This document shows, one piece after another, positions 3,661-64,000 of a DNA stretch of 64,000 nt. The notes beneath the pieces are model-generated. The model was not told the DNA's origin. It made no database searches and saw nothing but the letters and a program-made list of their open reading frames with translations. The stretch is from positions 48,176,001-48,240,000 of the forward strand of contig NC_086097.1 of the NCBI RefSeq assembly GCF_963921235.1, written 5' to 3'. The stretch comes from Mobula hypostoma. Lineage: Eukaryota. A program made the translations under genes and the position numbers. Each line of letters begins with the position of its first letter. The first letter of the stretch is position 1.

Positions 3661-3761
3661 GCAAGGCAAAAGTCAGACTTGTATTGTTTCCTGTAGTTGG
3701 GCATTGTAGTTGTGTTAATTTTGCATCCATTCCATTTTGAAAGTGGAACTTCTGCTAAATA

Positions 3762-3973
3762 TACACACACAAAATGCTGGAGGAACTCAGCAGGCCAGGC
3801 AGCATCTATGGAGAAGAGTAACCAGGACTGATGAGTCATGAGTTCTGTTGAAGGGTCTTGGCCTGAAATGTCAACTGTACTCTTTTCCATAGATGCTGAC
3901 TGAACTGCTGAGTTCCTCCAGCATTTTGTGTGTGTTGCCTCGGATGTCCAGCATCTGTGGATTTTCTTGCATT
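3762..3973. mobile_element. Short palindromic Penelope-derived element with 9-bp TSD
   Basis: Inverted arms acacacaaaatgctggaggaactcagcag / ctgctgagttcctccagcattttgtgtgt. tgctaaata is duplicated at 3753-3761 and 3974-3982. Confidence 0.7.
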
Positions 3974-5761: not shown

Positions 5762-6346
5762 AGAGTAACATGAGGTTGTATAAGGCATTGGTGAGGCCGA
5801 ATCTGGAGTATTGTGTTCAGTTTTGGTCACCAAATTACAGGAAGGATATAAATAAGGTTGAAAGAGTGCAGAGAAGGTTTACAAGGATGTTGCCGGGACT
5901 TGAGAAACTCAGTTACAGAGAAAGGTTGAATAGGTTAGGACTTTATTCCCTGGAGCGTAGAAGAATGAGGGGAGATTTGATAGAGGTATATAAAATTATG
6001 ATGGGTATAGAGAGTGAATGCAAGCAGGCTTTTTCCACTGAGGCAAGGGGAGAAAAAAACCAGAGGACATGGGTTAAGGGTGAGGGGGGAAAAGTTTAAA
6101 GGGAACATTGTGGGGGGGCTTCTTCACACAGAGAGTGGTGGGAGTATGGAATGAGTTGCCAGACGAGGTGGTAAATGCAGGTTCTTTTTTAACATTTAAG
6201 AATAAATTGGATAGATACATGGATGGGAGGTGTATGGGGGGATATGGTCCGTGTGCAGGTCAGTGGGACTAGGCAGAAAATGGTTCGGCACAGCCAAGAA
6301 GGGCCAAAAGGCCTGTTTCTGTGCTGTAGTTTGTCTATGGTTTCTA
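5762..6346 (+). mobile_element. CR1 LINE 3' fragment
   Basis: LYKALVRPNLEYCVQFWSP...LERRRMRGDLIEVYKIM, followed by a CR1-type 3' UTR ending ctatggtttcta. Confidence 0.9.
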
Positions 6347-6800
6347 ACTTCATGGCCTCCTCTTTTGCCATGATGAGGCCACTCTCAGACTGGAGGAGAA
6401 ACACCTCATATTCTGTTTAGGTAGCCTCCAACCTGATGGCATGAGCATTTATTTCTCCTTCCAGAAAAAGAAAAAATTCCCTCCACTTTCTCTCTTCTTC
6501 TATTCCAAACTCTGGCCTCTTACTTCTTCTCTTCACCTGCCTATCACATTCCGCTGGTGTCCCTCCTTTTTCCTTCTCCTCTCCTATCAAATACTTTCTT
6601 CTCCAGTCTTTTACCTTTCCCACCCACTTATCACCTTCTAGCTGGTCCTCCTTCAACTCCTCCCACCTTTTAATTCTGGCATCTTCCCCCTACTTTTCCA
6701 GTCCTGAAGAAGGGCCTTGGCCTGAAACATCAACAGTTTTTTTTTCATTTCCATCAGTGTTGTCTCACCTGCTGAGTTTCTCCAGAATCGTGTGTGTACT
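6347..6800 (+). mobile_element. Penelope-like element 3' fragment
   Basis: Similar to 27980-28468 (catggcctcctc...ggtagcctccaacctgatggcatga..., pyrimidine tract, cctgaagaaggg...gaaa). Confidence 0.7.
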
Positions 6801-6949
6801 GCTCTGGGTGAGTAACTATCCTGTATTGTGTGATAGTTACGTTGTAGCAACAGTGTTTTGATGGTGAAGGGAGTGAATAATCAATAGTCAAGTAAACTGC
6901 TTAAAACAGGAAAAATATTTAACGATGAGAGAAAGTCGAGGGGCATTTA

Positions 6950-9749: not shown

Positions 9750-9941
9750 TTAACCTGAACTGGTCTAGCCATATAAACACTGCGGCTACCAGAGTAGGTC
9801 AAAGGCTAGGAATTCTGTGGCGTGTAACTCACCTCCTGACTCCCTAAAGCCTGTCCACCATCGACAAGGCTCAGGTCAGGAGTGTAATGGAATACTCGCC
9901 AATCGCCTGGATGAGTGCAACTCCATTAACACTCAAGAAGC
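9750..9941 (+). mobile_element. CR1/L2-group LINE RT C-terminal fragment
   Basis: Translates SHINTAATRVGQRLGILWRV...KAQVRSVMEYSPIAW with one internal stop. Confidence 0.55.
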
Positions 9942-10340
9942 TTTCTCTCTGCGTGTAAGTAGTACGAATGGTGGACGCAGGCAAGTTCAACGCACGCACA
10001 ATGTCTTTATTTCGTTCACCACGATCGAAACACTTAATTACGTCCAGTTTTACGCTAAGCGTAACACCCTTACGAGCTCTCTTAGGCTTTTCTGATACCT
10101 TAGGACACAACTTGCTAACGGATGCACAAAATAAATCGAGATAAAGCACTCTCGCTGCTCAGGGTGCGCACTGCGTCTATAACAGCTCGCTGCAAAGCAA
10201 ACACTGAACGCTATTTTTGCTTTTCGTAACACCCTTATGAGCTCTCTTAGGCTTTTATACAAGGGACTTGAGTATCCGCGAATTTTGGTATCTGTGGGGG
10301 GTCCCAGAACCAGTCTCCCGCGGATACGGAAGACTGACTG
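9942..10340 (-). mobile_element. Tigger/pogo DNA transposon fragment (one terminus plus CENP-B-type HTH)
   Basis: ORF 9871-10149(-) contains KRARKGVTLSVKLDVIKCFDRGERNKDIVRALNLPASTIRT. Terminus ...gactgactg|TA at 10340-10342. Confidence 0.75.
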
Positions 10341-11464
10341 TAAAATAAATCTAGTGAGGCCCTCCAGAATGTAGGAAACTCCAGAGATCAATCTATCTAC
10401 CAGTGCTATATCCTGTTTTCTCAAAACCTTCAACTTCGGCCTATCAGGAGATGTATCGGCACCTAATCTCATTGATTCCTTCATTGCCACTTCTCTACTA
10501 ATCCTAATTTCTGAAATTCATTTCTCAGGAGGAATTTAATGGAACTTCCATTTGTGTTGTTAAGTAAGTGGAATAAATTCCAGAATAGAATAGGTTTTAT
10601 ATATCAATTGTGTTGTTTTTTTTAAATCTTTGCTTTTTTTTCATTTTACAGAAAAGTTAGGTGAAGTTTCTTCAGTTCAATCATTTATGAATTAACAATT
10701 ACCTTCTGCATTTTCTGTTAATGCTGGAGGGCATCAATTTCCTAAATATAAACCAATATTTTTGTTAGCAGAATGCATTATTGGGCAAATTTCCTGCTTA
10801 TTGACAATGATGATAATTTTCAAAAATTAAATATGATAAAATAATGTTTTCTTGGCTGATAGATAAATGTCATTACAATAATCTCTTGCTTTGCGGTGCT
10901 CCACATGAGTCTGACTTTCCCACATTTCTTGTCTCTCCTGTCACACTACATTTTTGTTGTTTCTTTAAAAGCTTTCAGTCAAGGAGTGACATGTTCTCAC
11001 CTTCACAAGTGTACAGGGGAGATGACACCCTGCAGTTAATACATTAAAGTTCTTATCCTTTCTGGATCTCCAGGTGTAACTTTTTATGGAAGGGTGCATA
11101 TTTTTACAGATTAAATTAATGCATTTTCACAGGCTTGTTAAGGTTAAGTAGGTACCTCTGCGATATTTCAATTGTGAATTTAGTTAACGGAAATTGCCTA
11201 ACTCGTGCGTGTTTCTGTCATTTCACACCTATTCTTTAAGCTATTCTTTATGTCCTTCGAAGTGGGAGAAACATTAAGTGAGTTTCCTTCACAGCGGGCG
11301 GGGCGGGGCGGGGGGAAGGACGCACAGGGAAAAAGGCGTGTGAATTGCATCATAGAACAGGGCAAAAAGCTTCGCAACTTCTTGTCACAATGTGCCAGAC
11401 TGCAGTTTGAATGGAACTGTTACTTTTCACATCAAATCTTAGTACAGAGGCAAACCATTAGGTA

Positions 11465-12346
11465 CAGCGCCTTGAAAATGTATTCAGCCCCCAACCATTT
11501 GTTCACATAAGTGAGTCTTACAACCAGGGATTTTGATCAATTTAACTAAGAAATTTTATTTGTGAATCACACGCTCCCCTTTTTCATAGTAGAGTCCCCA
11601 AAAAAAGGAAATTTCTGAAGCATGTAAACTAAAAATTGAAAAATTGAAATGTCAGCAGTTTAAAAGTATTCATCCTCCTTTGCTCAGTACTGAGCAGAAC
11701 CACCTCTCACAGCTATTACAGCCAGTAGTCTTTTTGGATAAGTCTCTACTAGCTTTGCACAATGTGATGGAGCAAGATGTGCCCATTCCTCCTTGCAAAA
11801 TTGCCCAGACTGTGCCAGGTTGCAGTATCTTCTAAGTGACGCTTTGCAAAGTCTTTACGGGCAAAGATATGCTTTTTTTTAGCAGCATGTATGGCATAAA
11901 TAAGAGATTACACATCTGATATTGTACATCAGCTAGGTAATAGCATTCCTATTGGAGGTAGAGTGTACACTGGAGGTATGGAGGAGGTAGTATTACGCAA
12001 TGGGGTGGCTTTTCAGCAGCAGAGTCTGGAAATCCAGCCAGAATTGATGGGAAGGTGAATGCTGCTAAATACAGAGAGATCCTGGATAAGAACCTGCTAG
12101 CCTCTGCTCGAAAGCTTAAACTGGAGGTGAATACTTTTGAACTGCTGACGTTTCAGTTTTGTTAGTTTGAATTGTTAGTTTTTCATGCTTTAGAATTTTC
12201 CCTGGTTTGGGGCTCTAGTGTGGGGGAAAAATAGGAGCATGTGATTCACAAATAAAAATTCTCAGTTGAAATGATCAAAATCCCTGGTTGTAATACTCAT
12301 TTATGTGAACAAAGGGTTGGGGGCTAAATACTTTTTCAAGGCACTG
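11465..12346. mobile_element. Non-autonomous Tc1 derivative with long TIRs and TA TSD
   Basis: TA|cagcgccttgaaaatgtattcagccccc ... gggggctaaatactttttcaaggcactg|TA. Inverted similarity extends >110 bp; transposase fragments inside. Confidence 0.85.
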
Positions 12347-12643
12347 TAACAATTACAGGTTGGCTCAGCCATAATATTGAAACCTGACCCAACCATGGCT
12401 AGCTACCAGAACCCCTCCCCAAGTGCTTAAGTTTTCCCATACCCGACCCAAGCCAGAGGCATTTCCAGAAAGAAATGACACGCTGACTTGTGCATCTGGA
12501 TTAAGGAACAGTAAAAGTAAGCAGACTATGCTGACCTGGATCAAGTATTAAACTGCCCTGATCCAACCTAAATATTTCAGCATATTATATCATGCATAGC
12601 TGTGTCCCCTTGGGCCCAGACTGGGTAGCCAATCTGCACTAGC

Positions 12644-15224: not shown

Positions 15225-15731
15225 GACCCAGGATTTTCTGCATTTATTTTTGACAAGCTTCAAGTGCCTGACTCTTCAAAACGAAGTCGAAATGAAAGTG
15301 AGAGCAGATGTGAGATTTGTGCAACCCACCTAAATCAGCTGCGAAAGGAAGCCATTCAGATGGTCCATAATCTTGACCAGGAATCCAGTCAGGACATACC
15401 TGAGTTGCCACACTGTTCCAACGCCATTTCTTCGAGCAATGCTTCCCAAAATGTGCTCACGCTTTCCTCACAAAGAGATTGGCCCTTTGTCAAAGGACAA
15501 ATGAGCAGACAGCCTGTAAAATCGGGAAATGTAATAAATGGCATGGAGAGACGGAAAGGATCTGGCTGGTCTCAGGGTACAAGCAGCCTTTCAAAGTCCA
15601 GTGTTCAAGTAACTGTTGGTTCCAGTGGTCTGAGCAGTGCTCTGAACTCAGTCACCATTCAGGCACAGCAGTACCTTGAGGGTATGTGGAGTATCTCCAG
15701 AGTCAACAACTTCCTTCCTCATGCCTATCTG
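15225..15731 (+). CDS. KIF26A: Internal coding exon (507 bp, phase 0/0) of kinesin-like protein KIF26A, N-terminal region
   Basis: Acceptor tttcctgtttacag| and donor |gtgagt. Translates DPGFSAFIFDKLQVP...RCEICATHLNQLRKEAIQMV...LNSVTIQAQQYLEGMWSISRVNNFLPHAYL, which matches the KIF26 family N-terminus as I recall it. Confidence 0.88.
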
Positions 15732-18606: not shown

Positions 18607-18676
18607 TATTGTTCATTTAGCACAAGTAACTGGGAATGGTTTTCTATTCCTAGTTACTTGTGCTAAATGAACAATA
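18607..18676. repeat. Near-perfect 70-bp palindrome (hairpin; possible tiny MITE)
   Basis: 25-bp perfect arms tattgttcatttagcacaagtaact / agttacttgtgctaaatgaacaata, plus 8 further pairs (two G-U) around a tttt loop. Confidence 0.85.
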
Positions 18677-26699: not shown

Positions 26700-27063
26700 T
26701 CTGTGTCTATATATAATAGCTCGGAACCTCTGAACATTTTCAGCATATCATACACATGATAGAGATATTGAAACAATTATTTAACTAGGGAAATTTTTAA
26801 AAATTTGATTATTCCAATTTTATTTGCAAACTTCTTGATTGTTAGAGTCATATTCTAGAAATAAGCATCAAAACATTAGATTAGATTAGATCAGATTATG
26901 AGGACAGGTCCTTGTTTATCGTCATTTAGAAATGCATGCATTAAAAAATGATAGAATGTTCCTCCAGAGAGATATCACAGAAACACAGGAAAAACCAAGA
27001 CTAAAACTGACAAAACCACATAATTATAACATATAGTTACAACAGTGCAAAGCAATACTGTAA

Positions 27064-28478
27064 ACACGAGGAATTCTGCAGATGCTGGAAATTCAAGCAA
27101 CACACATCAAAGTTGCTGGTGAACGCAGCAGGCCAGGCAGCATCTCTAGGAAGAGGTACAGTCAACGTTTCGGGCCAAGACCCTTCGTCAGGACTAACTG
27201 AAGGAAGAGCTAGTAAGAGATTTGAGAGGGGGAGGGGGAGATCCAAAATGACGGGAGAAGACAGGAGGGGGAGGGATGGAGCCAAGAGCTGGACAGGTGA
27301 TAGGCAAAAGGGATATGAGAGGATCATGGGACAGGAGGCCCAGGGAGAAGGAAAAGGGGGAGGAGGGGAAAAACTCAGAGTATGGGCAAGGGGTATAGTC
27401 AGAGGGACAGAGGGAGAAAAAGGAGAGAAAGAGAAAGAATGTGTGTATATAAATAAATAACGGATGGGGTACAAGGGGGAGGTGGGGAATTAGCGGAAGT
27501 TAGAGAAGTCAGTGTTCATGCCATCAGGTTGGAGGCTACCCAGACGGAATATAAGGTGTTGTTCCTCCAACTTGAGTGTGGCTTCATCTTTACAGTAGAA
27601 GAGGCCGTGGATAGACATATCAGAATGGGAATGGGATGTGGAATTAAAATGTGTGGCCACTGGGAGATCCTGCTTTCTCTGACGGACAGAGCATAGGTGT
27701 TCAGCAAAACAATCACCCAGTATGTGTCGGGTCTCGCCAATATATAGAAGGCATTCAGGGCCCCAGACAGTCCTTCCAGGTGAGACAACACTTCACCTGT
27801 GAGTCGGCTGGGGTGATATACTGCGTCTGGTGCTCCCGATGTGGCCTTCTTTATATTGGCGAGACCCGATGCAGACTGGAAGATCGTTTTGATGAACACC
27901 TATGCTCTGTCCGCCAGAGAAAGCAGGATCTCCCAGTGGCCACACATTTTAATTCCACATCCCATTCCCATGCTGATATGCTTATCCATGGCCTCCTCTA
28001 CTGTAAAGATGAAGCCACACTCAGGTTGGAGGAACAACACCTTATATTCTGTCTGGGTAGCCTCCAACCTGATGGCATGAACATTGGCTTCTCTAACTTC
28101 CGCTATGCCCCACCTCCCCCTTGTACCCCATCCGTTATTTATTTATATACACACATTCTTTCTCTTTCTCTCCTTTTTCTCCTTCTCTGCCCCTCTGACT
28201 ATACCCCTTGCCCATCCTCTGAGTTTTCCCCCCTTCCCCTTTTCCTTCTCCCTGGGCCTCCTGTCCCATGATCCTCTCATATCCCTTTTGCCTATCACCT
28301 GTCCAGCTCTTGGCTCCATCCCTCCCCCTCCTGTCTTCTATCATTTTGGATCTCCCCCTCCCCCTCCCACTTTCAAATCTCTTACTAGCTCTTCCTTCAG
28401 TTCGTCCTGACGAAGGGTCTCGGCCCAAAACGTTGACTGTACCTCTTCCTAGAGATGCTGCCTGGCCTTCTGTGTTCG
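27064..28478. mobile_element. Penelope-like retroelement: two truncated copies in inverted orientation, with GIY-YIG endonuclease remnant and 15-bp TSD
   Basis: FTCESAGVIYCVWCSRCGLLYIGETRCRLEDRFDEH..VATHFN. 27130-27752 is the inverted copy of 27844-28468. TSD aaagcaatactgtaa at 27049-27063 and 28479-28493. Confidence 0.88.
27160..27195 (-). ncRNA. Candidate minimal hammerhead ribozyme motif in the Penelope-like terminal repeat
   Basis: Minus strand reads agtc-CTGACGA-a-ggg-tcttgg-ccc-GAAA-cg-TT-gact: helix I agtc/gact, both core boxes, helix II ggg/ccc, palindromic ACGT helix III, GUU triplet. Confidence 0.6.
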
Positions 28479-29479
28479 AAAGCAATACTGTAATTTGATA
28501 AAGAGCAGACCCATGGGCACGGTAAAAAAAAGTCTCAAGTCCTGATAGCCCATCATCTCAAGCAGATGGGAGAAGAGAGAAACTCTCCTTGCCCTGAACT
28601 CCAAGCGCCGCAAACTTGTCGATGCATTGGAAGCACCCGATCGCAGCCGACTCTGAGTCCATCCAAAAACTTCGAGCCTCCGACCAGCCCTCTGACACCA
28701 AGCACTGAGCACCATCTCTGCCGAGCGCTTCGACCCAGCCCCGGCTGCCAAGCAACAAGCAAAACCGAGGACTCGGGGCCTTCCCCTCTGGAGATTCTGG
28801 ATCACACAGTAGCAGTGGCAGCGAAGCAGGCCTTTCAGAAGTTTCACAGATGTTCCTCCGTGCTCTCACGTCTGTCTCCGTCAAATCAGGATTGTGCACA
28901 GCACCCTACTTGACAGATAACAGATATTCACCGGAGTGACTGCTGCACGCTGTGTCACGCTGCCATCTTCTCCTCCCGCCCATGATGTTTGCTTTGACTT
29001 AGCACCGTTCCTTTGTAAAGTACAAGACGTGTATTATGGCTGGTGTACCTCTCTGCCCAATACTGTCAGTATGCTATGACTTTAAGTGTCCTGATATGGC
29101 AGTTCTGAGATCTTGAAGATACGGTAACACTATTCTTTTCCACCTTTGTACTTAACCAACATACAGGCCTTGTAGACTGAATGCATGATGGCAATCAATG
29201 CTCAGATACTGAGAATACTGGCACAGCAGTGCAGTGTGCATTGTGAAAATGCCAGAACCTATCTTCCAAACAGTTGGTAGATGTTGGGACAATTGAAACT
29301 TCCAGAATTTGACTGTACAAGGTTAGGGCATTGACGAACGCAGATTGGTAATGCAGAAATGGGGATTTTTAATTGGTCACAGTTACTGCCAACACTGCCT
29401 AATTGATACTGAACAGGAAAGCCATTAAAAGTCAATCACAGTGATTCTGGAGCAAGGATTGTGATGAGGTTCCTGATGC

Positions 29480-30550: not shown

Positions 30551-30648
30551 AACAAATTTCACACCACATGCCGCTGATAATAAACCTGATTCTGATTCTG
30601 ATGAGATCGATGTAGCATTTTCTGGACCAGCATAAACAAGATGAACTA

Positions 30649-31187
30649 TGCTCGGTGGCACTTTATTAGGTACCCTCTGTACCTAATAAAGTGGCCATTG
30701 AGTGTATGTTCATGGTCTTCTGCTGCTGTCACCCATCCACTTCAAGATTTGACATGTGGTGCATTCAGAGATGCTCTTCTGCATACCACTGATGTAACGT
30801 ATGGTTATTCGAGTTTCTGTTGCCTTTTTGTCTGCTTGAACCAATCAGGACATTCTCTCCTCTGATCTTTCTCACTAAGGCTGTTTAACCCATAGAACTG
30901 CCACTCACTGAATGTTCTTATTGTTTTTTCAAACCATTCTCTGTAAACCCTAGAGACTGTTGTGCATGAAAATCCCAGGAAGTTCAGCCGTTTCCAAGGT
31001 ACTCAAACCACCCTGTCTGGCACCAATAATCATTCCATGGTCATAGTCACTTAGATCACAGCAACTGAACCTCTTGACCATGTCTGCATGTTTTTATGCA
31101 TTGAGTTATTGCCACAGGATTGACTGATTAAATATTTGCATTAACGAGCAGGTGTACAGGTGTACCTAATAAAGTGGCCACTAAGTG
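30649..31187 (-). mobile_element. Non-autonomous Tc1-derived element
   Basis: Termini gtggcactttattaggtac ... gtacctaataaagtggccactaagtg; interior homologous to 26207-26699. Confidence 0.78.
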
Positions 31188-33913: not shown

Positions 33914-34083
33914 ACACAAACAGCAATGACGGAGAGTGGAAAGGAAGGTTTATCGCAAGAAGCCATCATCCAGCAGAAGAGCAGCAGTCAGCCCTGGGCA
34001 GCAGGGGCACCGGCCTCTCAGAATTCATTACTGCCTGGAAGGGTTTCTTCTGGCACTTCCGCTGCAGCTTCTTTCTTCATCAG
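33914..34083 (+). CDS. KIF26A: Next coding exon (170 bp, phase 0/2) of KIF26A
   Basis: Acceptor tttttgctttcag| and donor AG|gtatca; phase is compatible with the previous exon. Ends in SAAASFFIR. From recall, KIF26A has FFIR and KIF26B has FFAR, so the paralogue call is moderately sure. Confidence 0.85.
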
Positions 34084-34314
34084 GTATCAGATTATTTCAT
34101 TTGTCAATGGGAAGCTTTAAATTGGATTAAACATTTTCAGTCAAGTTTGATTGGTTGATGTGATTTTCACTTAAAAGCTTAAAAATGGTTGAGCTTTAGA
34201 AACTGATTTTTGAAGTAAATTATTGCATTATTAGGTAATTTGATACAAATGATTTCTCTCCCTGTCATTTTGTAAGTTGATTTTCTCTTATCTTTTTGGG
34301 GTAGATCTTTATTT

Positions 34315-36529: not shown

Positions 36530-36700
36530 GCACCTCCAGCATTTCCTTCTGAAGGGTTTCGGCCGGAAAAGTCAACTGCACTTTTTTTCCATTGATGCTC
36601 CCTGGCCTGCTGAGTTCCTCCAGCATTTTGTGTGTGTTACTTGGATTTCCAGCATCCGCAGATTTTCTCTTGTTTGTATCCAGCATTTTCTGTTTAGGTT
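36530..36700 (+). mobile_element. Penelope-derived terminal repeat fragment(s)
   Basis: gaagggtttcggccggaaaagtcaactg...ctgctgagttcctccagcattttgtgtgtg...gcagattttctcttgttt. Confidence 0.7.
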
Positions 36701-37560: not shown

Positions 37561-37841
37561 ATGCTCGCTGATTAGATGAGTAAACCATATTTAACTCACA
37601 TAACTTTTTCATATCACAAGGTTTGTCATTTTTAACTGACTTTTGAACTCATCAGTTTATTAAGATCTAGTAGACCACAGGCTCACCATTTACATGCACC
37701 AGACAATTAGCATTCTCAGTGATGCCCTTTACAAAGGTCCCACTTGTAACATATGAAGGAGAAAGATGTAATCTGCCACTGGTGGATCAGACTAGCAATG
37801 AGCCTCAGTGTTCAACACATTAAAGAGTTTTATGATATCCT

Positions 37842-38282
37842 AAGCAACACACACAAAATGTTGGAGGAACTCAACAGGTCAGACAGCATCCATGGAAATG
37901 AATAAACAGTCAACGTTTCGGGCCGAGACCCTTCTCCAGGACTGAAAAGGAAGGGGGAAGACTCCAGAATAAAAAGGTGGGTGGTGGGGAAGGAGACTAG
38001 CTTAGAAGATGCTGAGGTAGTGAGTCTGGGTGAACCCTCCCACTCCTCAGCCATGCACTCACCCAGACCTGCTACCACAGCACCTTCTAGCTAACCTCCT
38101 TCTTTCCCCTGCAGCTTTTTATTCTGGAGTCTTTCCCCCTTCCATTTCATCCTGAAGAAGGGTCTCAGCCCAAAATGTCGACTGTTTATTCATTTCCAGA
38201 GACGCTGCCTGGCCTGCTGAGTCCCTCCAGCATTTTGTGTGTGTTGCTCTGGATTTCCAGCCTCTGCAGCGACTTTCCCGTG
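37842..38282. mobile_element. Palindromic Penelope-derived mini-element with 13-bp TSD
   Basis: Arms ~37843-37975 and ~38115-38248 are inverted copies. tttatgatatcct is duplicated at 37829-37841 and 38283-38295. Confidence 0.8.
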
Positions 38283-40934
38283 TTTATGATATCCTGCTGC
38301 TTGTGATGTCACCTAGACTAGTCGGTGGATTAAAATCTTGCAGGCATTTTGTGTGAGATTTCTCTAAATAATCAACTGCACCTGTGTAAGGCACATCATT
38401 ATTAATGTGCAGACTGATTGGCCACGTAACCCATCATTATTGGATCACATATGTCAGTGCTCACTCAGCCCTTTTCCACAGAAAACTAGGTCTAACAATT
38501 AATAGCCCAAGCATCCTTTCAGTGACATAATGGTTGTCGGTTATTGTCAATTAACCTGTCTTGCCCAGTGTGAAATACGCTGGAGAAGTTCCTAGTTAAT
38601 TTCTAAAAAGAGTGGATACATTTCTTTTTTCCTCTTTCATATCTTCCTTTTAAGGTAATATTCTTTCTCCTTCTTTCTTTCTTTTCCTATACCTGCCTGG
38701 ATATTTGTTCACCCACCCACGTTCACCCTCTTTCTTATATTTTCTACTCTTTTTAAAATTTGTCCCTTTAATATCATTGGATCTGCTGTTGGCCTTGTTC
38801 TTCATCAAGATGCTCTACTGTCCTCATCACACTGTTATTAGCTAACACTTCCAGTATTACCATAGCTTCCACATGCAAACTAGTCTAATGAACACTGCAA
38901 AAGGTCCCACCTCAGTAATATTTGTGCCTGGATGGAATGCTGTTAGCTGGCAGACACACCAGGTGATTTCCTGCTGAGCCCTCTTTCAGTCTCTGATTTC
39001 TTCTTGTCATTTCCCTGTTAAATACGCACTCATGCAATACTTCTAACTTTCGAAGTGTGGTTTTATAATCAATTCTAAAGGTACAGTTTAGTGGGAAAAC
39101 TAAAAACAGAAGAGCCAAGGAATGCTCTTTCTCTTTAATCAAATCTTAGTTTCTCACAGAAATGGAAATTTTGAAAGTCTCTGATGAAAGTAAAAGCACA
39201 GACTAGTGTTATTTTAATGAGTGTGGTGTTGCAATGCGCAATTTGTAAATTTGGTAGCAGGAAGTTAAAAAGATCAAAGTGGGCATATCAAAGGTTTCAG
39301 AGACTGATTTTGAAAGAATCTTCTAATTCTTACATTGTATTTGCAATTTTCATTTAAGATGCAACAAAAATTAGAGGTATGCAAATTTCAATACCATTGT
39401 GACATTTAGCCATTTGTTGGGTGATCTGCAGCATATTAATAGCAATTCAAGTACAAGGGAATGTTGTGAACTAAGCATTGGGCTTTCATGTCAGGTCATT
39501 TCTAGATTTAACACAGAAAAATATTGGCAAAATATTCTAAAAAGAGAATGTATAGATCATTTTAATAATCAAAGTATTAATTAGCCTGACTTGATACCAA
39601 GTGAAAAACTACATCAGCTCTCAGTACCAACCTGAAATGTTTCTTTCTCTTTCTACAGATGCCGTTTGATCTGACTATTTGCAGGTCTTTCTGTTTCTAT
39701 TTCACGTTTCAATATCCATCGTATTTTCTTTTCTACCATATTCACTCAACTTTGTTAAACCCCAGTTAGGATGCTAAGCTGCACTAATTCTTGCTATGTG
39801 AATAAGAGAAATTCCCAGGACAACAACGCTACTCAAATAATGTCATGTGCAAACAATTGTAAATATTTGCAATTACAAAGAACACTTAACAACCTGGTGA
39901 ATTTTGTTAGCCTGACACAGCTGTAGCTTATGATTATTAACCTGAAAGGCTGTGCAAATTATTATTTTAAAGGATGTGGACAAAATATAATTTTCCTTGT
40001 GTAGTTTGTATTTAGAAATGAATAGTTGCTGAATATGTTCCATCTTGAGCCAACAGCAGTGATAAGAATGCTGCCTCCGTATAATGTTAAACCATATGGC
40101 AGTCACTGACACTTGATGGGTCACTGATAAGCATTTGGTTATTAGAATCGGCCATGAAATGCCTTCTACATAATTGAGGTTACTCAAAAGAACAGGTACC
40201 TTATCAGCTTTTAGCTGTGGGGGCACAGCTTGCTGATGCTCAATGTACTGATTGTTCTGTGACCAAGCATATGATTAGTGTATCGAGGCAGTTTGTTCTT
40301 AATGAAATGGCAGCAAAATGCATATCAGTAACACCAGTGCCGAAAAATGACTAATTTGATGTTCTTCAGTGCATTTCACTGTTTAATTAGTAACTATAAA
40401 CTCTGAGGCATCAATTTGCTTTAACTGTAATGATCAGATGGGTTCCTGCTAAACATTACAGGGAAGGTAATCTTACTGCCTCACTCATTAATTTTTCTCA
40501 TGCCTCCGTTTTATGTTGAGACTGAAATTCAGTGATTGGACCTCTTGGTGTGCCTTGAATCTGCCTTAATTAGTTTGTTGCTGCAGCCAATCCATGTTAC
40601 CGGTTCATGGACAGTGACCTCGAATGTCTATTGTGCAGCCACTTTCTGTGCACTTCCCGATTTTTCAAGCAAACTCCTTGCGCTTATGAATGGTGCCCAC
40701 TGAGCATGTGCAGAACATTGTGAAGCACTCATTCTTAAGGTCACATGGACTCAACAAAGGTGTACAGACTTGGTTTATGAATACCAGGGGCCCTATATAC
40801 TGAACCCACACCTAACTGGAAAGCTGGTGTCTGTATCACTATCATGTAAGAGGATCTATTTCATCTGGACAATTGACAGAGAGGTAGATGGAGTTATCCT
40901 TATAGATGATGTCCTTAAGTTTCTTTGCTCTTCC

Positions 40935-43900
40935 TTCCGTTGCTTTGAGGAAGAAACAGAAGCAGGAGGAGATGGCAATTGTGGACAAGATTAAAGAAAT
41001 TGATAAGAAATATGTTATGGCTCCTTCTGAGGAGCTATACAAACAAAGAACTGAACTTCAAATGGAACACAGTTTACTACTCTCGTCCTCGATTGTAAAC
41101 CAATTAAAGAAAACAAGAAGTGATTTTTATGTTCACAGTGATAAAATTGGCAAGCTGCTGGCTAATCAATTGAAATCTAATTATGTTAAATCTCAAATCA
41201 ATCAGATTTATAACCAAAATGATCGATTGATATTGGATCATGTGGGGATTAATCAAACCTTTTGTGATTTTTATTCTTCTTTATATCAATCAGAGTCTCC
41301 TCGAGATTCTAAATATATGAATGATTTTTTAGATAAGTTAGACTTCCCTCAGATTTCACAGGATATGTCTTCTTTATTAGATACTTCCATTACAATGGAT
41401 GAGATTAAGAATGTTATTTTTTCTATGAATCTGGGGAAAGCTCCTGGCCCTGATGGGTTTACCGTTGAATTTTATAAATGTTTTGCTTCTTTATTGATTC
41501 CTTGGCTCTATAAGGTTTTTGAGGCTTCTTTGAAACTTGGTAAACTTCCGGAATCTTTTAATAGAGCATCAATTTCTTTAATACTAAAGAAGGATAAAGA
41601 CCCTGCTCAATGTGCATCTTATAGACCAATATCTTTATTAAATGTTGATTCTAAAGTTTTTTCCAAGTTATTAGCAAATAGACTAGAAAAAGTACTTCCT
41701 TCTATTATTTCGGAAGACCAAACGGGTTTTATTAAAGGTCGTTACTCTTTTTATAATATTCGTACATTGTTAAATATCGTTTATACTCCCTCACAAAATG
41801 TTCCTGAGTGTGTTATTTCTTTAGATGCCGAGAAAGCTTTTGATAGAGTAGAATGGCCTTATTTATTTAAGGTGCTTGAAATGTTTAATTTTAGCTTGAA
41901 ATTTATATCCTGGATTAAACTGTTATATCACTCCCCTGTAGCCTCGGTTCGTACTAACTCCTTAAACTCACCTTTTTTTCCTCTCTTTCGTGGTACTCGA
42001 CAAGGCTGTCCTCTTAGTCCCCTATTATTTGATATTGCATTAGAACCTCTTGCAATTGCTATTCGAGAATCTTCAAATATTACTGGGATAACTTGGGGAT
42101 TAAAGTCCCATAAATTATCACTCTATGCTGATGATTTACTTTTATATATTTCTAATCCTGAGAGATCCATTCCTGCTGTTTTAGAGTTATTAGCACAATT
42201 TGGTCTTTTCTCAGGTTATAAATTAAATCTTAGTAAGAGTGAACTTTTTCTGATTAATAAACATCTTCCCTTATATTATAAATTTCCATTTAAATTGATT
42301 AATAATTACTTTTCATATCTTGGGATTAAAATTACTTGTAAACATAAAGATTTATTTAAGACTAACTTTTTACCATTAATAGACCATATTACTCAACTTT
42401 CATCTAAATGGTTTCCCTTATATTTAACTTTGATTGGTCGTATTAATGCAGTTAAGATGTTTTTTTTGCCAAAATTTTTATATGTGTTTCAGGCATTACC
42501 AATTTTCGTTCCTAAATCTTTTTTTGATAAAGTTGACTCTAAAATTTCTTCATTTATTTGGCAGAATAAGAATCCGAGACTGGGTAAAATACATTTACAG
42601 AAAGCTAAGAGAGATGGAGGTTTAGCATTACCTAACTTTAGATTTTATTATTGGGCTATTAATATTCGACATATGAAATTTTGGTTACTTGACCGGGACA
42701 TACTATCTATTCCTAAATGGGTAGCATTGGAATTACAATCTGTTCAGGGTTATACACTTGGTTCTATTTTAGGTTCCTCTCTTCCTTTTGATTCGAAACG
42801 CCTTAAGCAGGTCTCTAACCCGATAGTTAAATATGCTTTGCGCATTTGGTTTCAATTCAGAAAATTTTTTGATCTTAATCAATTCGGGTTAGCGATTCCT
42901 ATTTTAGGTAACATATTTTTTCCTCCCTCTTTTACGGATCGCGCTTTTCAAACTTGGAAGACTAAGGGTATTTTACGGTTTTTGGATTTATTTTTAGATG
43001 GTTCCCTTATGTCTTTTGAACAATTATCTAATAAATATAACTTATCAAGAATACATTTTTTTAGATATTTACAAGTTAGAAATTTCCTAAGTACTATACT
43101 TTCTTCCTTTCCAATGCTTCCTCCTATATATATTTTAGATTCGATAATTAACCTTAATCCATGTCAGAAAGGTGCATCGGCTATGATTTATAATATTATT
43201 ATGAAACTTAGGAAAGCTACATTTGATAAGATTAGGGTAGATTGGGAACAGGAATTGGGGCTTACCATTTCTGTGGATGATTGGGGGCAGATTTTACAAT
43301 TAGTTAATACTTCCTCTATTTGTGCTAAACATTCCCTAATTCAATTTAAAGTGGTTCATAGAGCACATATGTCCAAAGATAAGTTAGCGCGTTTTTACTC
43401 GCATATTAATCCTTTCTGTGATAGATGTTCGGGGCAGATAGCCTCTTTAACTCATATGTTTTGGTCTTGCCCTACTTTGGAAACTTTTTGGAGAGATATT
43501 TTCAATATTATTTCTAAGGTATTAAATATAGATATCTCTCCTCACCCTATTACTGCTATCTTTGGACTACCTAAAATTTCTAGTAATCTTTCCCCTTCAG
43601 CCCGTAGAATGATTGCATTTCTTACTTTAATGGCGAAAAGATGTATTTTACAACATTGGAAAGAGCTTAATGCTCCAACTACCTTTTTTTGGTTTTCTCA
43701 GACGATTTTATGTTTGAATCTGGAGAAAATTAGAAGTAACCTTTATGATTCTTCATTTAAATTTGAACAGATTTGGGGACCTTTTATTCGATATTTTCAT
43801 TTAATGTAATATTTACCCTTCTTGTTTTTTTTTTCACTGTTTTAATGGAGGTCGGGATTGAGGACGTGATTTTAAGTTTAACTCTGTTTGGTTTCAAGTT

Positions 43901-44934: not shown

Positions 44935-45163
44935 TGAAGCACCTTCAATAACTCCAAAAGACGGAGGTTTGGTAAAATACTGAAAGGCTTTTATTCGCTG
45001 TACAATGCGACCTCCACAGTGAGTGTTTGCCCCCGGACTGAGGGGGAGGGGCAAGGCGAACACCTTTATACAGGACTCTGTGGGAGGAGCCACAGGGGCA
45101 GTCAGCAGAGGGGTGTGTCCAGACAGGTAGCCGAGTTACAACATATATACATGGTTTACCACA
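44935..45163 (-). repeat. 3' LTR (229 bp)
   Basis: Minus strand tgtggtaaacc...gcttca; direct repeat of 49158-49407. Confidence 0.95.
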
Positions 45164-45181
45164 TTCACCCCTCCTTTTTTT
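45164..45181 (-). other. Polypurine tract
   Basis: Minus strand aaaaaaaggaggggtgaa, directly before the 3' LTR. Confidence 0.85.
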
Positions 45182-45232
45182 AAAAAGAGCCCCGCGGGGT
45201 GAAGTGACTGACAATAGTTACAAGAAGTATAT

Positions 45233-49131: not shown

Positions 49132-49157
49132 GTTTTAAAATGTACAGCGAATAAAAT

Positions 49158-49407
49158 TGAAGCACTTTCAATTACTCCAAAAGACTGAGGTTTGATAAAA
49201 TACTGAAAGGCTTTTATTCGCTGTACAATACGACCTCCACAGTGAGTGGCTGCCCCCGGACTGAGGGGGAGGGGCAAGGCGAACACCTTTATACAGGACT
49301 CTGTGGGAGGAGCCACAGGGGCAGTCAGAGGAGCCACAGGGGCAGTCAGCAGAGGTGTGTGTCCAGACAGGTAACCGAGTTACAACATATATACATGGTT
49401 TACCACA
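49158..49407 (-). repeat. 5' LTR (250 bp, includes a 21-bp tandem duplication)
   Basis: Direct repeat of the 3' LTR with an extra gaggagccacaggggcagtca. Confidence 0.95.
49259..49293 (-). promoter_or_regulatory. Putative LTR core promoter (TATA box plus initiator)
   Basis: Minus-strand TATAAA at 49293-49288 and TCAGTC with its A at 49262, 31 nt from the TATA start. AATAAA follows at 49218-49213. Confidence 0.6.
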
Positions 49408-53304: not shown

Positions 53305-53475
53305 GAAACTGCAGGTGCTGCAGTCTGGAGCAACATGCAAGATGCTGGAGGAACTCAGCAGTCTCTTCCCTCCACTTCTTTATACCTGCCATCTCCTGTC
53401 TAGTCCAGATGAAGGGTCTCAACTTGAAATGTCGACTGTTCATTTCCTTCCATGGCTGTTGTCTGACCCTCTGAA
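53305..53475. mobile_element. Degenerate inverted Penelope-derived mini-element
   Basis: gatgctggaggaactcagcag arm followed by the opposite-orientation agtccagatgaagggtctcaacttgaaatgtcgactg. Confidence 0.6.
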
Positions 53476-54694
53476 TTCTGTTTTGCCTGCTGACCGGTTA
53501 GCAGTTTGTACAATTGTACAGTTCCTACAATTGTAACTGAGGCACCTTTGGGTCATTCTCAAAAATTCTGCTCTGAGTTTTGGGTTTTGTCTGCCATTCA
53601 ATTATTTCAATGGACAGAAATTTACCCTGTTTTCTTTTGATATGTGTGGGTGAGAGCTCATGCCAAATTTGTAAAATGGCTGGTTTTATCTTCTCAACTC
53701 CTTTGTGTCATTATAAATATTATTGTCTAATCCTTTATTTTGTCATCAGGACTTCACCAGAACAAATCTGGCAATTTAATATGCTCCCACATAACAAATC
53801 CACAATACAGAGTGTAAAATTGAGCTCTGATGTACTGTATCTATTTATGTTTCATGAACTTCAACTTGAAATTCCACGTGAATTGTATTTCACGTTCCAT
53901 TAGTTACATTGGACAGAGACCGATCAGACAGCCAGAACAAACTACTTCAGTTTTGTTTCCGAACTGTAGTGAATTTCACTGACGTGTTTTATTATGGTCT
54001 TTATCAGTATCTCAATCCATATATCTTTGACCAGAGAGTCAAAAATTTAACAATTCCCTGTCTCATAAATATTATGGGAAATGAACTGAGTGGAAGCCTG
54101 GGCAGTTCATATCATTCATAGGCTTGATATGAAGGGATTTAATGGCTGAGTATGTGGTGTTATTCAAGATGTGGATTGGAAAGCAGTAAACAACAGCCTA
54201 AAGCTTCCATTAGACCCCACCTTTAAACAGTTGCACTTCCTCTGTAGCTAGTGTTGGATGTCAAATAGATATTTTTAAACATCGAATGGAACTGGGACTA
54301 GTCTTTCCAGTCTGTAGCATTCTGACAACTATTGTAGTCTGATTCTGACAACTATTGTAGTGCCTGTTGTTCTCCTCCTCCATTAGTACTAGCCCCCCCC
54401 CCACCCCGTCCCATGCTTGTCCACCCTTGGTACCTACCTGACGACTGTTGCCATCTGGAAATGACAGGATAATTGGAGGCCTGAAATGGAAAATGAGCTC
54501 AAGATTGGAGATGAGTACAGGGGAAATAACAGAAAGGGGACCAGAGAACATGAGGGGAAACAAGAATAAGTGAATGGGGATTCAGGCAAATGAAAAGTAT
54601 GAGGAAAATCTTCAGCCTGGACATATGTATTGGTCAAATGGATTCATTTAAGGATACAAGGATTAACGTAATTCACCATATACATTTATATGTA

Positions 54695-58304: not shown

Positions 58305-58430
58305 ACTACAAATTCTGCAGATGCTGGAAATCTCGAGCAACACACACAACATGTTGGAGCAACTCAGCAGGTCAGGTAGCATCTATAGAAGGGAATAAAC
58401 AGTCAATATTTTGGGCAGAGACCCTTCGGC
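58305..58430 (-). mobile_element. Penelope-derived terminal repeat fragment
   Basis: ttctgcagatgctggaaatctcgagcaacacacac...cagtcaatattttgggcagagacccttc. Confidence 0.75.
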
Positions 58431-61400
58431 ACCATGCCTGCTGGGGACAACTTAATGGATATGCTTTGAAAGAAAATTATTTCTGAAAATGTTGTGGGAA
58501 ACCATTTCTTTACAATAGAGATCCATTTATTTACCATAGAAATGTAAGAGGACCATTGTTGTTCAAGGAAATGTAGATATAACCCCATTTTAGGACTCAG
58601 TTACATCGATAAAATCACCATTGGCTGCAGAGTGGAGTAACATCCTGAATATGTGCCGCTTGGTTAGTTGGCCTCTGTAAATGATTCCTGCTGTAGGTAA
58701 GCAGGGAAGAAACAATGGGGAGCCAATAGGCAAAAGTGCATGGCCATAGCAAGATAAGTTGAGAGAAAATTGGGTTGTTGTCTCAGAAGTTGGCATGGGC
58801 ACACCGGGTCAACCAGCCTCCTGCTATGTTGTAATAAGTAGGTGTTTTATGAGGGATATGTGATAAGACTATTTATAGGAAGCTGCAGGCAAATATTGGT
58901 TCTAGATGTATTGTTAGATTATCTGTTTATTTGTTAAATTTAGTATTGAAATGTTAAAGAACTATAATTATCATGGTGCCATTGCTATCACTGTGCTAAT
59001 TTGAAATTAGTATTAAAACTTACAGTTAACATATACTGAGAAACAAGATTCAATAAATGTAACCTGTCTTACGGATGAGGTTTGTGTCAGAAATCATAAA
59101 AATCATTTGTTTAATCTGTTTTATTTACTGAATGAGGATATGCTAGCAAGATTATGCAAGGTATGGTATATAAAGAACATACACAATAAAAGGCGGTAAA
59201 TAGGTGTCATTTTAAAATCTGTTTTTTAAAGTTTATATCCTTATTACGTGCTTTTGTTAATTAAGTTTTTGTTTGAGGTAACAAGAATAGAGTGATCAAA
59301 AATCTGCTTCTTCAAATGAGCATTATGCTTACAATGCAACTTACTTTAATGTCTTCTGACTTCACCACATTGCCAGATGTTTTGAAATCCTCTTCTTTTG
59401 ACAGTTATGCTGCTAATGGGAAAACAGCAATCAATACATTATAGTACCCTGGTGCTCCATTCTTCCTTCAGAAGTAGAAGTCATGCATTACTAAAAATCA
59501 CCTCATCCATCTCATTTCCTTTATTCCTATGATCTCAATATACATTACGCAGTAGCGCTAAATTGTGAAGTTGTTCACTGCCTGGGGCAGCAGGTTAGGG
59601 ACCCTCCCTTGACACTTGATCTTTGAGTGTTTCTGGATGCGTTGTATATTACTATCCTCTGCCATGTGGCTTGCCCTGAAAAAAGAACTCTCCAGAGCGT
59701 CTTAAAAGACAGCTTCTATTAACCATAAAAACAGGTTAAGTGAAATCCAACTGTATACTGAAATCAGAAAAATGGAGCAAAGTTGCACAGTGCAAATGTA
59801 ATTATCAGAAGAGAAAATGTATAAGAAGCATAAACCTTAAAAATAATGTAGAAAGCTTAGCACAAGTGCTAGGTTCCTTGTTTGTGTACTTAAAAAGATA
59901 ACACTTATCCTTTGGGGATTTCTATTCAATCTGCCCCTTAGCCATATCCTGCAGTTTGACAGGATTTTTGCTGAAAGCAAGACAATACAAAAAAACAATA
60001 AAAAGCATTGCAAATCTCAGCGTTTGATCATGCTTTTGATAACTGTTTCATTTAAAGAATTATAGAAAATATACTATTCAGAATTTAAACCATTAAGTTT
60101 AGCTATTTCATATTTTCAATGCCTTAAAACCATGAAAAAGCACTAGTAGTTTGAAAAGAACAGTGGGGATTAACGATGTGTGTTCTATTTTCAAGACAAT
60201 ATTCAATCATAAATTGAAATTCATACTTCTGAACATTTTTATAATATGTGCTAATCAAGTTAATAGTCTGAATGAGTGAATATTGGACAGCTGAAATCAT
60301 TTTCCAATTAACTGACGAAGATTGCCTTCAATTGTCCTCTACAGAATAACAGAATTTATATAAACAAAGATATTATAATTACAAATTTCTTTTAACACGT
60401 TTTTAATCAATGGCTTCAGAATACTCCAATTATCTTTTGTTAATTGAACAATTGACCACAGTGATAAGTGTTGATATACAGTATCAACAACTGGTCAAAT
60501 AGTGGTTAAAAGTGTGTTTCCAAACAACTACCTCCCCAACCAAAATACAAGTAAAGGTTGCTATAGATTGTGTTCTGGGTAATTTAGCAAGAGGCAAATG
60601 TCTGTTGTGTTGATATGGGTCTCCCTTGACTCACAAAAGTAATGCCTTCCTGAAAAAAACTGTTAAATGAAATTTTGTAAATAAAACCAGATTGAGTGAA
60701 ATGAATCACTGGCACTTTGTGTTCCTACAAGCAAAAGTCTATTTATTCTTGTGGTGGAGTGTAGATTCATAAATCGAATGTTCATACCCCAAAGAAAATG
60801 GTGTTACAGTGAATATTTGTAAATCTAACATTCATTATCATGGCAACAAAATCTTCAAAGTCATTTTCTAAGATACAGTAAATTGCTATACTTGAGTCAA
60901 AAGGTTTAAATTAGTTGAGCTTAATTAATGCTATAACAATGTACCTGATAAGTAAAACCTTGTTGATAAACATCGAACAATTCTACTACTTCATTTTGAT
61001 TTAGTATATAATAATTGCCAGTTTATCATTGTTGCATTTTGAGATTAATGTAGTGACATCACACAATTAATGTTAACAGGCTTGGAACATTATCTGTTGT
61101 TTGTATATATTCTTGATATAAAATAAAGCACTGGTCATAAAGTAATGGAAATAGAAACAAGGGTAGTTGCACATCTAGAAAGTAAAGGGCACAGTTTACA
61201 CAAAAGGTATTCTTCCCCACTTGCAAGGCAGATCAGATGTCCTGCGGAAAGTTTGCACAGTACCAGATGGGTCAGATAAGATGATTACAAGCTTCTAGTT
61301 TGAGGCATTGTATGCATTGAGCCAATGAGAGGAACAGCCAGGATGTAATGCCAAAAAATATCTGTGAAGGTTTAAATTCAAGATCTACAAACAGAACTCA

Positions 61401-62439
61401 GAACATTGAAGTTTTCACAAATAGAATACAGGAACCACCTTTTGATGGCTACCTATTGAAATTTGTCATGGGAACCAATTAATATAGATCGATGAATAAT
61501 TTTGGCAACGAAGTACAAAGTGCTGGAATGTTGCCCCGCTTTGATCTCATCCTTTGCTCTTGATGATATTCACATTGTTTTCTTCCTATGGAAGTACTGT
61601 TGGTCTTTAAGCACAAAATATTGTGAGCTATGATTTCCTTTCGTAACGAACCAGAATTAGGTTTAATATCACCAGCATATGTCATGAAAATGATATCCTT
61701 TATTGATTTCTAGTGTTTAAAAAGAATCCTAATTCAATGAAAATTTGGGCTTCCAACTGGGCTCCTTCCAAGTTAGAGCCAGTTAACTGAATATAGCTAC
61801 AAATGAAAGCTCAGCATGGCTCTCACTCAAGCATAGTTGCAAAAATCGGTTCCATTACTTGCTGCAAGAGGCTGTGAAGAACTGTAAGATGCAAAAGTGG
61901 GTTCTTATTAAATAAATCAAATGGCACCAACCATAATGCATGCAAAGTAGATGAGACTGCAGGTACAGTAAAACTCCAATAATCCTTGACCCGACTATTC
62001 AGTATCTGGCTCGACAGGCCATGTTTGGCCTTCGAACTCATCCCACTTCCTGCACAACTTCTTTACTCACTAGGGTCCCAGATCCTGAGGTCCCTTGAAA
62101 ATGACTGGGGCTTTGTTTCCACATTCCCTTTAAAATTGCTAGATCCACTGGAACACTTATTATTCTAATTTGGAACTGTTTAAAAAATGTGATCTAATAT
62201 TGTATTGGAGTATTAGTAACATCCAACAGTCTGTAAAATCTGCCAGTCCAGCGCTACCGAAAAACTGAGTATTACCAGTTTAATTGTATATTTTGCCGTT
62301 ATTCCTGAATGCTCCAAATTTTATATTGGAGTGAATCTTGAGAATGTTGCATACAGAAATACGCCCTTCTGCCCAATGTGGTTGCATTACTGGTTCTGTC
62401 CACTGACCTCCCTCCTGGCACCTACAGCACGCCTGCCCC

Positions 62440-63150
62440 TATACTTTCTCCCTCACCATCATTCGTAGTACATCTTGGGAGCCTGTCGGGGCCACCTATT
62501 GTATCTGCTGCTCCCAGTGTGGTCTCCTCTACATCAGTGAGACCCGACACCGACAAGGAGACAGCTTCATCCAGCATTTTCGGTCTGTTGCTGCAAAATA
62601 ACAAAACTCCTGGTGGCTACCTATTTCAATTTGACCTCCCATTCTATACGGACATGTTGGTCCATGGCCTTCTCTAATGCCATGATGAGGCCTATCTCAG
62701 GTTGGAGGAGCAACACCCCATATTCTGTCTGGGTAGCTTCCAGTCTGATGGCATGAACATTGATTTCTGCAACTCCTGGTAATTTCTCCCCCCTGCCTGC
62801 TTTTTCTATTTGCCATTCTGGTAACTCTCTCCTCTCTTACCCATCACTTCCCTGTGGTTCCACTCCTCTCTCCTCTTTATTGGCCTAATGTTTTCCTCAG
62901 TCCTTCACCTCTTCTACCTATCACTTTCCAGCTTCTCATTTTATCTCCTTCCTCCCCCCCCCTCACCTGGTCTCACCCATCACCTGTCATCTTCTCTGTA
63001 CTCCTTCCCCCCACCCCCCAACCTTCTTATTTCAGCTTCTTCCCCCTTCCTTTCCTCAGAAAGAATGCTGGCCATAAATATCAACTGGTTATTCTTCTCT
63101 GTAGATGCTGCCTGACTTGCAGGATTATTCCAGCCTTTTGTGCGTGTTGT
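62440..63150 (+). mobile_element. Older Penelope-like 3' fragment with GIY-YIG remnant
   Basis: tgtggtctcctctacatcagtgagacccga translates CGLLYISETR; ctcaggttggaggagcaacac..ctgggtagcttccagtctgatggcatgaac matches 28020-28085. Confidence 0.75.
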
Positions 63151-64000
63151 TTTCCGCAAAGTATTTAGACCTGATTTTTTGAATGGATGCCTGTGGTCAA
63201 GAATCTGATTAGGTGCAGGCTGAGAAACTGCAGGTGGGTTGCAAGCAAAATTCCTAGTTGCTGGCCAAAATGGGAAAATCTAACAGCACTATCCTTTTGT
63301 TTTTCTTTATTGTTTAATATGGAATATCTTATTTTCTTTGAAAACAGGTCTCAACAACAGGGGTGTGATAAGAGTCCCAGTTTACTAACTATGGAGACTA
63401 CCTGTCACTCCATATGAAGTGCATGTCAAATGATCTAATGGACATGCTGCATTATATTTTTGTGAAGGATAAGCAATATTTTGGAGGCTTCCAATATGAT
63501 ACAGATGTGATTCAGCTCCCAGCTGTATGCTTCCCATCTCAGTGTCAGAGAAAATGGTGGTTGATAAAATGAACTGGTTCAAATTTTAATCTTTTTTAAA
63601 ATGAGCGTTCACTTTGCAATCAACCTGTTTGACAGCTCAGATACTTTTGTTTACTTCCACCACATTGGCATTTGCTAAATGAATCAAGATGCATTTGATT
63701 AGTTTATATATATCAATCCTATTTGGGGATTTATTGCTTAATTGGTGAACCCTCCTGTTCAACACTTTGGTCCTATATGGAGATAAGTTCAAAAGCAATA
63801 CTGTAAGATAACTGGATAGAGATGTAAAAAGGATTTGGCTGAGGGGCAGGCTAAGAGGGCTCAACAAATAAATATTCCAGAGGGCCAGCACCAACTTATT
63901 TGACTGAATGGTCTTTCTCTGTGTTCTATAGTTCAAAATAAGTGTAATATCTTCAGCTGACATGCAATAGCTTTAAGATATGGTGCATTCATGTCCTGTA

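Follow-up and report, generated by a model that had tools for sequence, protein, structure and literature searches.

The 64,000-nucleotide stretch of Mobula hypostoma DNA analysed here, hereafter the window, contains two exons of a gene for a KIF26A/B-like kinesin and eight insertions of a Penelope-like element (PLE), the 3' end of which carries a short repeated motif laid out like a minimal type-I hammerhead ribozyme (Table 1). Since the exon at 15225..15731 is encoded on the plus strand, this is the sense strand of the host gene, and with three homologues as queries no further KIF26A/B-like exons were found in the window beyond the two. The insertion at 27064-28478, which lies between the two, is thus intronic, and the motif copies outside it are probably located in neighbouring introns of the same gene.

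Table 1. Host exons, element insertions and motif copies, numbered from the first base of the window.
Feature	Position	Strand	Remarks
Source window	Mobula hypostoma NC_086097.1, 48,176,001-48,240,000	forward	64,000 nt
Host exon, KIF26A/B-like kinesin	15225..15731	+	Pfam PF23081; 83% to sawshark protein; splice sites
Next host exon	~33914..34084 (start approximate)	+	tblastn
Target-site duplication, left	27049..27063	+	15 bp
Left arm of main insertion, 5'-truncated Penelope-like copy	27064..27752	-	GIY-YIG end, pyrimidine-rich 3' region, hammerhead, 100 nt after H17
One-sided tail	27064..27112	-	3' extension on left arm only, 56 nt beyond right arm
Intact minimal type-I hammerhead motif	27159..27196	-	only intact copy; antisense to host gene
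Right arm, same insertion	27744..28478	+	GIY-YIG remnant, 3' region, hammerhead, 44 nt after H17
Hammerhead copy	28402..28439	+	G12-to-A (CpG-type), helix I mismatch; sense to host gene
Target-site duplication, right	28479..28493	+	15 bp
Short inverted insertion	3762..3973		9-bp target-site duplication (3753-3761, 3974-3982); hammerhead 3841-3876(+)
Truncated copy	6334..6805	+	GIY-YIG end (6348-6458), hammerhead 6699-6736
Micro-insertion starting at motif's 5' edge	36545..36678	+	10-bp target-site duplication (36535-36544, 36679-36688)
Second inverted insertion	37842..38282		13-bp target-site duplication (37829-37841, 38283-38295); hammerheads 37907-37944(-), 38147-38184(+)
Short inverted tail piece (-), then hammerhead 53402-53437(+)	53305..53480		no target-site duplication found
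Micro-copy	58311..58436	-	no target-site duplication found
Older truncated copy	62428..63160	+	GIY-YIG remnant (62428-62773), motif ~63051-63088

The element and its insertions

The insertion at 27064-28478 consists of two inverted arms that differ by 28 mismatches in 627 aligned bases, and the GIY-YIG remnant of the right arm, which in translation retains a CxxC and two histidines, matches PF01541 with E = 1.3e-5, above the curated cut-off. In two public runs 99 and 66 contig records exit the window at 27063 and continue like the right flank; they represent the empty site as it exists in further copies of the host repeat interrupted here. The sequence on the two sides of the insertion (26915-27063 and 28494-28900) is another high-copy repeat which the insertion interrupts, and there is no second copy of it in the window. 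The 3' end of the element family is furthermore marked by loose ends at 27062, found in 817 and 794 contigs.

Of 23 candidates nine were returned as homologues, the top six (67-91%) coming from Mobula and Hypanus: the best is a Mobula hypostoma protein with 91% identity, and the next five are proteins of Hypanus sabinus. All four homologues that were scanned have a CX2-5CxxC linker and the endonuclease CxxC, and three of the four have a YxDD-like RT motif upstream; the 91% homologue from Mobula hypostoma has the RT, linker and GIY-YIG motifs together. The RT region is absent from the window copies, which are truncated, the window arms beginning just downstream of the linker. According to PMC8557442, the CX2-5CxxC linker marks Neptune and Nematis elements; an assignment to the one or the other would rest on this linker motif, which is common to both, and on the vertebrate host. 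Within the element the GIY-YIG end is followed after about 310 nt by the motif, which in turn is separated from the 3' end by 44-105 nt. The Penelope origin that the original prediction had assumed is thus upheld by the GIY-YIG match, the 91% homologue, the inverted 5'-truncated arms, the one-sided tail and the target-site duplication. It should also be mentioned that three ray gene models named after host genes (P0003, P0004 and P0009) contain pieces of the element's open reading frame, a sign of either annotation fusion or exon capture.

The ten motif copies represent eight insertions, and the nine listed earlier represent seven, since the copies at 27160 and 28403 are the inverted arms of a single insertion bounded by target-site duplications and the same applies to those at 37907 and 38147. 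Together the eight insertions amount to about 3.7 kb or 5.8% of the window. Target-site duplications were found for four of the eight and not for those carrying the copies at 6700, 53402, 58400 and 63050, and the chance expectations of the duplications of 13, 10 and 9 bp are about 0.0002, 0.007 and 0.03, respectively, the 9-bp duplication of the short inverted insertion being the weakest among those found. A partial-tandem element, with two direct pLTRs around a full open reading frame and two same-strand motifs, is not present in the window, as is to be expected for truncated copies. The large genomic load of the motif that had been proposed is supported qualitatively, the family being very abundant in public contigs: the contig records matching 431 bases at 80% likeness number 129,523 and 77,290 in two of four public runs, the other two yielding no reads and hence no test, and these figures do not represent copy number. 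Exact patterns of the tail matched no locus in viral or metagenome contigs, a result that carries no information.

Several of the arms begin close to the motif. Four arm 5' ends (3830, 3841, 36545 and ~58430) are found within about 10 nt of the 5' edge of the motif, and none at the cut site. In the short inverted insertion at 3762..3973 both arms start at helix I, 10 nt apart; the minus arm (3762-3840) has retained just the opening 8 nt of the motif, and the sequence that follows helix I comes almost immediately after these, so that about 30 nt of the ribozyme interior are missing. Public contigs likewise have a heap of loose ends (628 and 555 contigs, agreement 0.4) at 27195, where helix I has its 5' edge, and these may be a mix of another subfamily and of insertions starting there.

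Anatomy and decay of the motif

The nine motif copies of the original prediction were all recovered at the positions and on the strands given there, and when the 27160-27195(-) copy was used as query on both strands, with up to 13 mismatches in 36 allowed, these nine and no others were hit, at 0-11 mismatches. A tenth and more decayed copy at about 63051-63088(+), absent from the earlier list, emerged from repeat finding and alignment, and the length of the repeated motif is 38 bases. When a strict minimal type-I descriptor was used, comprising a 4-bp helix I, CUGANGA, an optional extra base, a helix II of 3-8 bp, GAAA, a palindromic spacer and UH, the only match in the 64 kb had its C3 at 27191(-), and dinucleotide-shuffled windows gave any match in 1 of 300 cases. 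Rfam covariance models gave no hammerhead match at E-values up to 1 for the 64 kb or up to 10 for 161 bases, and the Rfam matches to miRNA, snoRNA and lncRNA models were dropped, being far below the gathering scores.

The 5' half of the intact copy at 27159-27196(-) is made up of a 5-bp helix I, CUGACGA (C3 = 27191) and an extra A, and the 3' half of GAAA (G12 = 27171), the palindrome ACGU and a GUU triplet (H17 = 27164); all boxes are complete, U16.1 is present and H17 is not G. Helix II had been described as 3 bp with 6 nt, but it is really 4 bp closed by a 4-nt loop, the fourth pair being U-G in eight of the ten copies and C-G and U-A in one each. The pair 10.1-11.1 is G-C in five copies and G-U in three, the extra A after A9 is found in all ten, and the palindrome ACGU is kept in three, the others having mostly CpG-type changes. 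A pyrimidine tract upstream of the motif, with an AG after it that falls inside helix I, resembles a 3' splice acceptor at 27192-27220(-), 6675-6703(+), 37940-37968(-) and 53377-53405(+).

Most copies, as had been claimed, are mutated in the core, both catalytic boxes being unchanged in only two of the ten (27160 and 6700), and in the 6700 copy helix I pairs and the palindrome are lost. The core is changed by A6-to-U in the 3841 copy, at both G5 and A6 in the 36542 copy, by A6-to-G as the sole core change in the 37908 copy and by U4-to-A in the 53402 copy; the 38148 copy combines G12-to-A with a disrupted helix I, the 58401 copy is truncated inside the first box (CUGANGA) and has G12-to-A in addition, and the 63050 copy has many changes. 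The 3841 copy was furthermore thought to have kept its helix I pairing, and a U-A pair at 2.1-1.1 is indeed present, but 292 of 500 shuffles reach the same level, so that the compensation this implies does not exceed chance, and the G-to-A half of the pair is a CpG change which is uncompensated in three other copies. Covariation in helices I and II amounts to one two-sided change in 90 cells, which is not above shuffles, ten decayed copies giving this comparison little power.

Within copies, the catalytic boxes had been expected to be conserved above the flanking background, and this was not found, since 87 of 99 box positions are conserved as compared with 318 of 379 in the tail (p = 0.43; nine copies, that at 28403 being dropped as the sibling arm of 27160). 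Such a lack of core excess is what neutrally decaying insertions give, and the motif is therefore not refuted by it. The comparison between subfamilies is the informative one, and here the 37908 and 27160 copies agree at 34 of 37 positions in the motif and at 8 of 30 upstream, 5 of 12 in the linker and 26 of 39 in the tail, while the other non-sibling copies agree with 27160 at 22-30 of 37 positions in the motif and at between 4/10 and 11/30 upstream. The boundaries of conservation are sharp at both ends of helix I, and the resulting conserved island, as it appears in these alignments, favours the motif.

Single copies decay after insertion, mostly at CpG. Among the variants listed from the public contigs (40 of 56 entries), the eight inside the motif are all CpG-type transitions, and their frequencies are weighted by contig depth and not by copies. 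On this measure the commonest of those listed are at H17 (76-80%), in the loop (72-79%) and at C11.1, which is changed to U (42-43%), all three being structurally tolerated, and G12-to-A, which affects the same CpG as C11.1, is found at 11-12%, much as either half of the palindrome CpG is changed at 11-13%. This suggests, as a hint only, that U11.1 has been amplified by active sources and A12 has not; by simple arithmetic, the chance that three common variants all fall outside the 11 core positions is about one third.

Possible functions of the motif

We consider it highly probable, judging from the sequence, that the introns of this KIF26A/B-like gene hold a type-I hammerhead layout in the 3' end repeat of 5'-truncated PLEs, which is likely to be the relic of an RNA-processing ribozyme and of which the copies present here are likely inert. 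In a source element of the partial-tandem kind, the transcript would contain two same-strand motifs, the ACGU palindromes of which would pair with each other to form helix III, and the RNA would then be cut after the GUC or GUU triplet (at H17), slowly and probably helped by the element's own protein, as in related elements. Such a cut would process the RNA of the element, and reverse transcription, starting 44-105 nt further downstream in the tail, would usually end early. Being close to the 3' end and always within the short cDNAs, the motif would be copied into the genome more often than any other part of the element. The notion of slow and assisted cutting is in agreement with the reports that minimal hammerheads do not cut as monomers and cut weakly as dimers (PMC4209133) and that the motif of an Anolis element cuts only with the element's protein (PMC11167929). 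In the latter study no RNA-seq reads ended at the cut site, which speaks against the proposed mechanism.

Folding predictions speak against easy activity. Taken by itself, the intact copy has a predicted fold no better than that of shuffles (z = -1.5), and by nearest-neighbour energies the double hammerhead (-16.1 kcal/mol) is disfavoured relative to inactive rods (-11.3 as monomer, -32.7 as duplex), models of this kind omitting the tertiary contacts of the core. A dimer formed in cis by the copies at 27160 and 28403 is ruled out by their being on opposite strands: as the arms are opposite in strand, one transcript carries only one sense motif and no double hammerhead can arise from it. In the predicted fold of the whole insertion, 35 of the 38 bases of each motif are paired with the other motif, and the lone sense motif is predicted to be held together with its antisense partner in a duplex of 600 bp. 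In the host pre-mRNA the region 27064-28478 is predicted to form a hairpin of more than 600 bp with 92% of its bases paired, and a hairpin of this size, if formed, is a possible substrate for A-to-I editing or for small-RNA production.

A more far-reaching proposal is that the family constitutes a natural mutational scan, in which the core would be required in source elements, C11.1U would spread and the lethal G12A would not, while intact copies would cut host pre-mRNA, either as dimers in trans or with protein, and selection would purge them from sense introns; this we regard as unlikely.

It is also conceivable, if distinctly unlikely, that the motif is derived from a hammerhead but has been kept in source elements for another job and does no cutting in vivo, candidate jobs being a signal for protein binding or reverse transcription, the start of a transcript, or a 3' splice acceptor formed by the AG of helix I. 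This idea is in agreement with the observation that hammerhead mutants are without effect on insertion of the Anolis element in vitro, for which the motif is thus dispensable (PMC11167929), and it is furthermore in line with the pyrimidine tract, which has 0.80-0.88 C+T in all seven copies with element-derived upstream sequence (0.50 in the window) and is followed by AG at -4/-3 in four of these seven. An intron of the D. virilis Penelope is likewise reported to end at the 5' end of helix I (PMC4209133), and the four arm 5' ends near the 5' edge of the motif, with none at the cut site, would fit as well. However, the U-rich upstream stretch belongs to the general consensus of minimal hammerheads (PMC4209133), and related motifs do cut, as dimers in vitro (PMC4209133) or with protein (PMC11167929). 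In addition, subfamilies with unrelated flanks, and likewise different phyla, have in common the unpaired core bases (CUGANGA, GAAA), the extra base and the palindrome, and this is what catalysis predicts.

A function in the host, by which intronic sense-strand motifs would cut or regulate the KIF26 pre-mRNA in the manner of a domesticated intronic hammerhead, is very improbable. In its favour, seven of the ten copies are host-sense, and the original prediction was right in placing several on this strand (six of the nine it named); conserved intronic hammerheads are moreover known from amniote genes (PMC6155905). All seven sense copies have however suffered core or helix changes, and the sole intact copy is antisense, although intactness of 0/7 sense and 1/3 antisense copies does not differ significantly (p = 0.3). 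Since every sense-strand copy is broken, the effect on host pre-mRNA that had been implied is left without support, and a domesticated intronic hammerhead is rejected for the same reason. Furthermore, the insertion at 27064-28478 is private and lies inside another repeat which has empty sites elsewhere, and its sense arm is predicted to be sequestered in the long duplex.

Finally, a chance match of the end sequence of a repeat family to the hammerhead would be in keeping with the absence of an Rfam hammerhead match and of covariation in the window and with the weak folding z-score, but it can largely be dismissed, given the 1/300 rate of descriptor matches in shuffled windows, the position in the end repeat, which is the published one (PMC4209133, PMC8557442), the exact fit to the consensus (PMC4209133) and the abrupt change in conservation at either end of helix I.

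Relation to known hammerhead-bearing elements

The identification of the motif as a minimal PLE hammerhead in a terminal repeat, as originally proposed, agrees with the published consensus (PMC4209133, Fig. S3). Shared features are the type-I topology, CUGANGA with one extra base, the pair G10.1-C11.1, GAAA, a palindromic 15.2-16.2 without loop 3, a helix I of 4-5 bp and a U-rich upstream flank, and the published motifs are likewise mainly solo copies in truncated elements, with opposite-strand pairs near each other. The alignment in the same source includes triplets of the GUU type as well as a G-U pair at 10.1-11.1. With 4 bp, helix II is short here, the consensus showing about 6 bp and Caenorhabditis 3-4 bp, and the vertebrate records in PMC4209133 are of about 4,000 and 9,000 motifs per genome, as compared with the 10 copies in 64 kb found here. 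A search of supplementary file 2 of that paper, as available, for shark, skate, Callorhinchus and Leucoraja found no shark or ray rows.

With the Neptune and Nematis PLEs of PMC8557442 the ray family shares a C-terminal GIY-YIG with CCHH and, in its nearest homologues, the CX2-5CxxC linker, and also 5' truncation, an inverted truncated partner and a tail at one end, although the tail difference is 56 nt here and 30-40 bp there. The Anolis Poseidon element PAc (PMC11167929) is alike in having a hammerhead in the pLTR, AT-rich target sites and alternative 3' ends, the latter explained there by two internal RT start sites. It belongs however to another clade, Penelope/Poseidon, without the linker Zn finger, its open reading frame starts in stem II, and its activity has been measured and is protein-assisted. 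Non-LTR retrozymes (bioRxiv 10.64898/2026.07.22.740005) likewise have type-I hammerheads from PLE pLTRs and are reported in one chondrichthyan, but they form head-to-tail tandem arrays, whereas the ray copies are dispersed or inverted and some have endonuclease remnants. There are no such arrays in the window and a tandem retrozyme is therefore rejected.

The kind of motif was thus already published in 2014 (PMC4209133), and the ray family is a further example. No description of the family itself was found in the literature as far as the sources were available, and since the preprint 10.64898/2026.07.22.740005 reports PLE-derived retrozymes in one chondrichthyan, a prior mention is possible. 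As it stands the finding has little significance: PLE hammerheads have been known since 2014 and the window copies look like relics. It has been suggested that PLE ribozymes are possibly parasitic on PLEs (PMC8557442), and a family this abundant could show from sequence whether the ribozymes matter in vivo, of which the window gives hints only.

The window also contains other repeats. An LTR retrotransposon at 44935-49407(-) has terminal repeats of 95-98% likeness and encodes, in separate frames, domains of protease, RT, RNase H and integrase, and a 967-codon open frame at 40906-43809(+) with RT and zf-RVT domains is a LINE ORF2-like piece. The remnant of a CENP-B-type DNA-binding domain and two pairs of long inverted repeats (9871-10158, 11463-12348 and 56164-57602) are probably DNA transposon relics, and the short near-perfect hairpins at 18607-18676 and 30641-30713, which gave sub-threshold matches to Rfam miRNA families, are probably MITE-like repeats.
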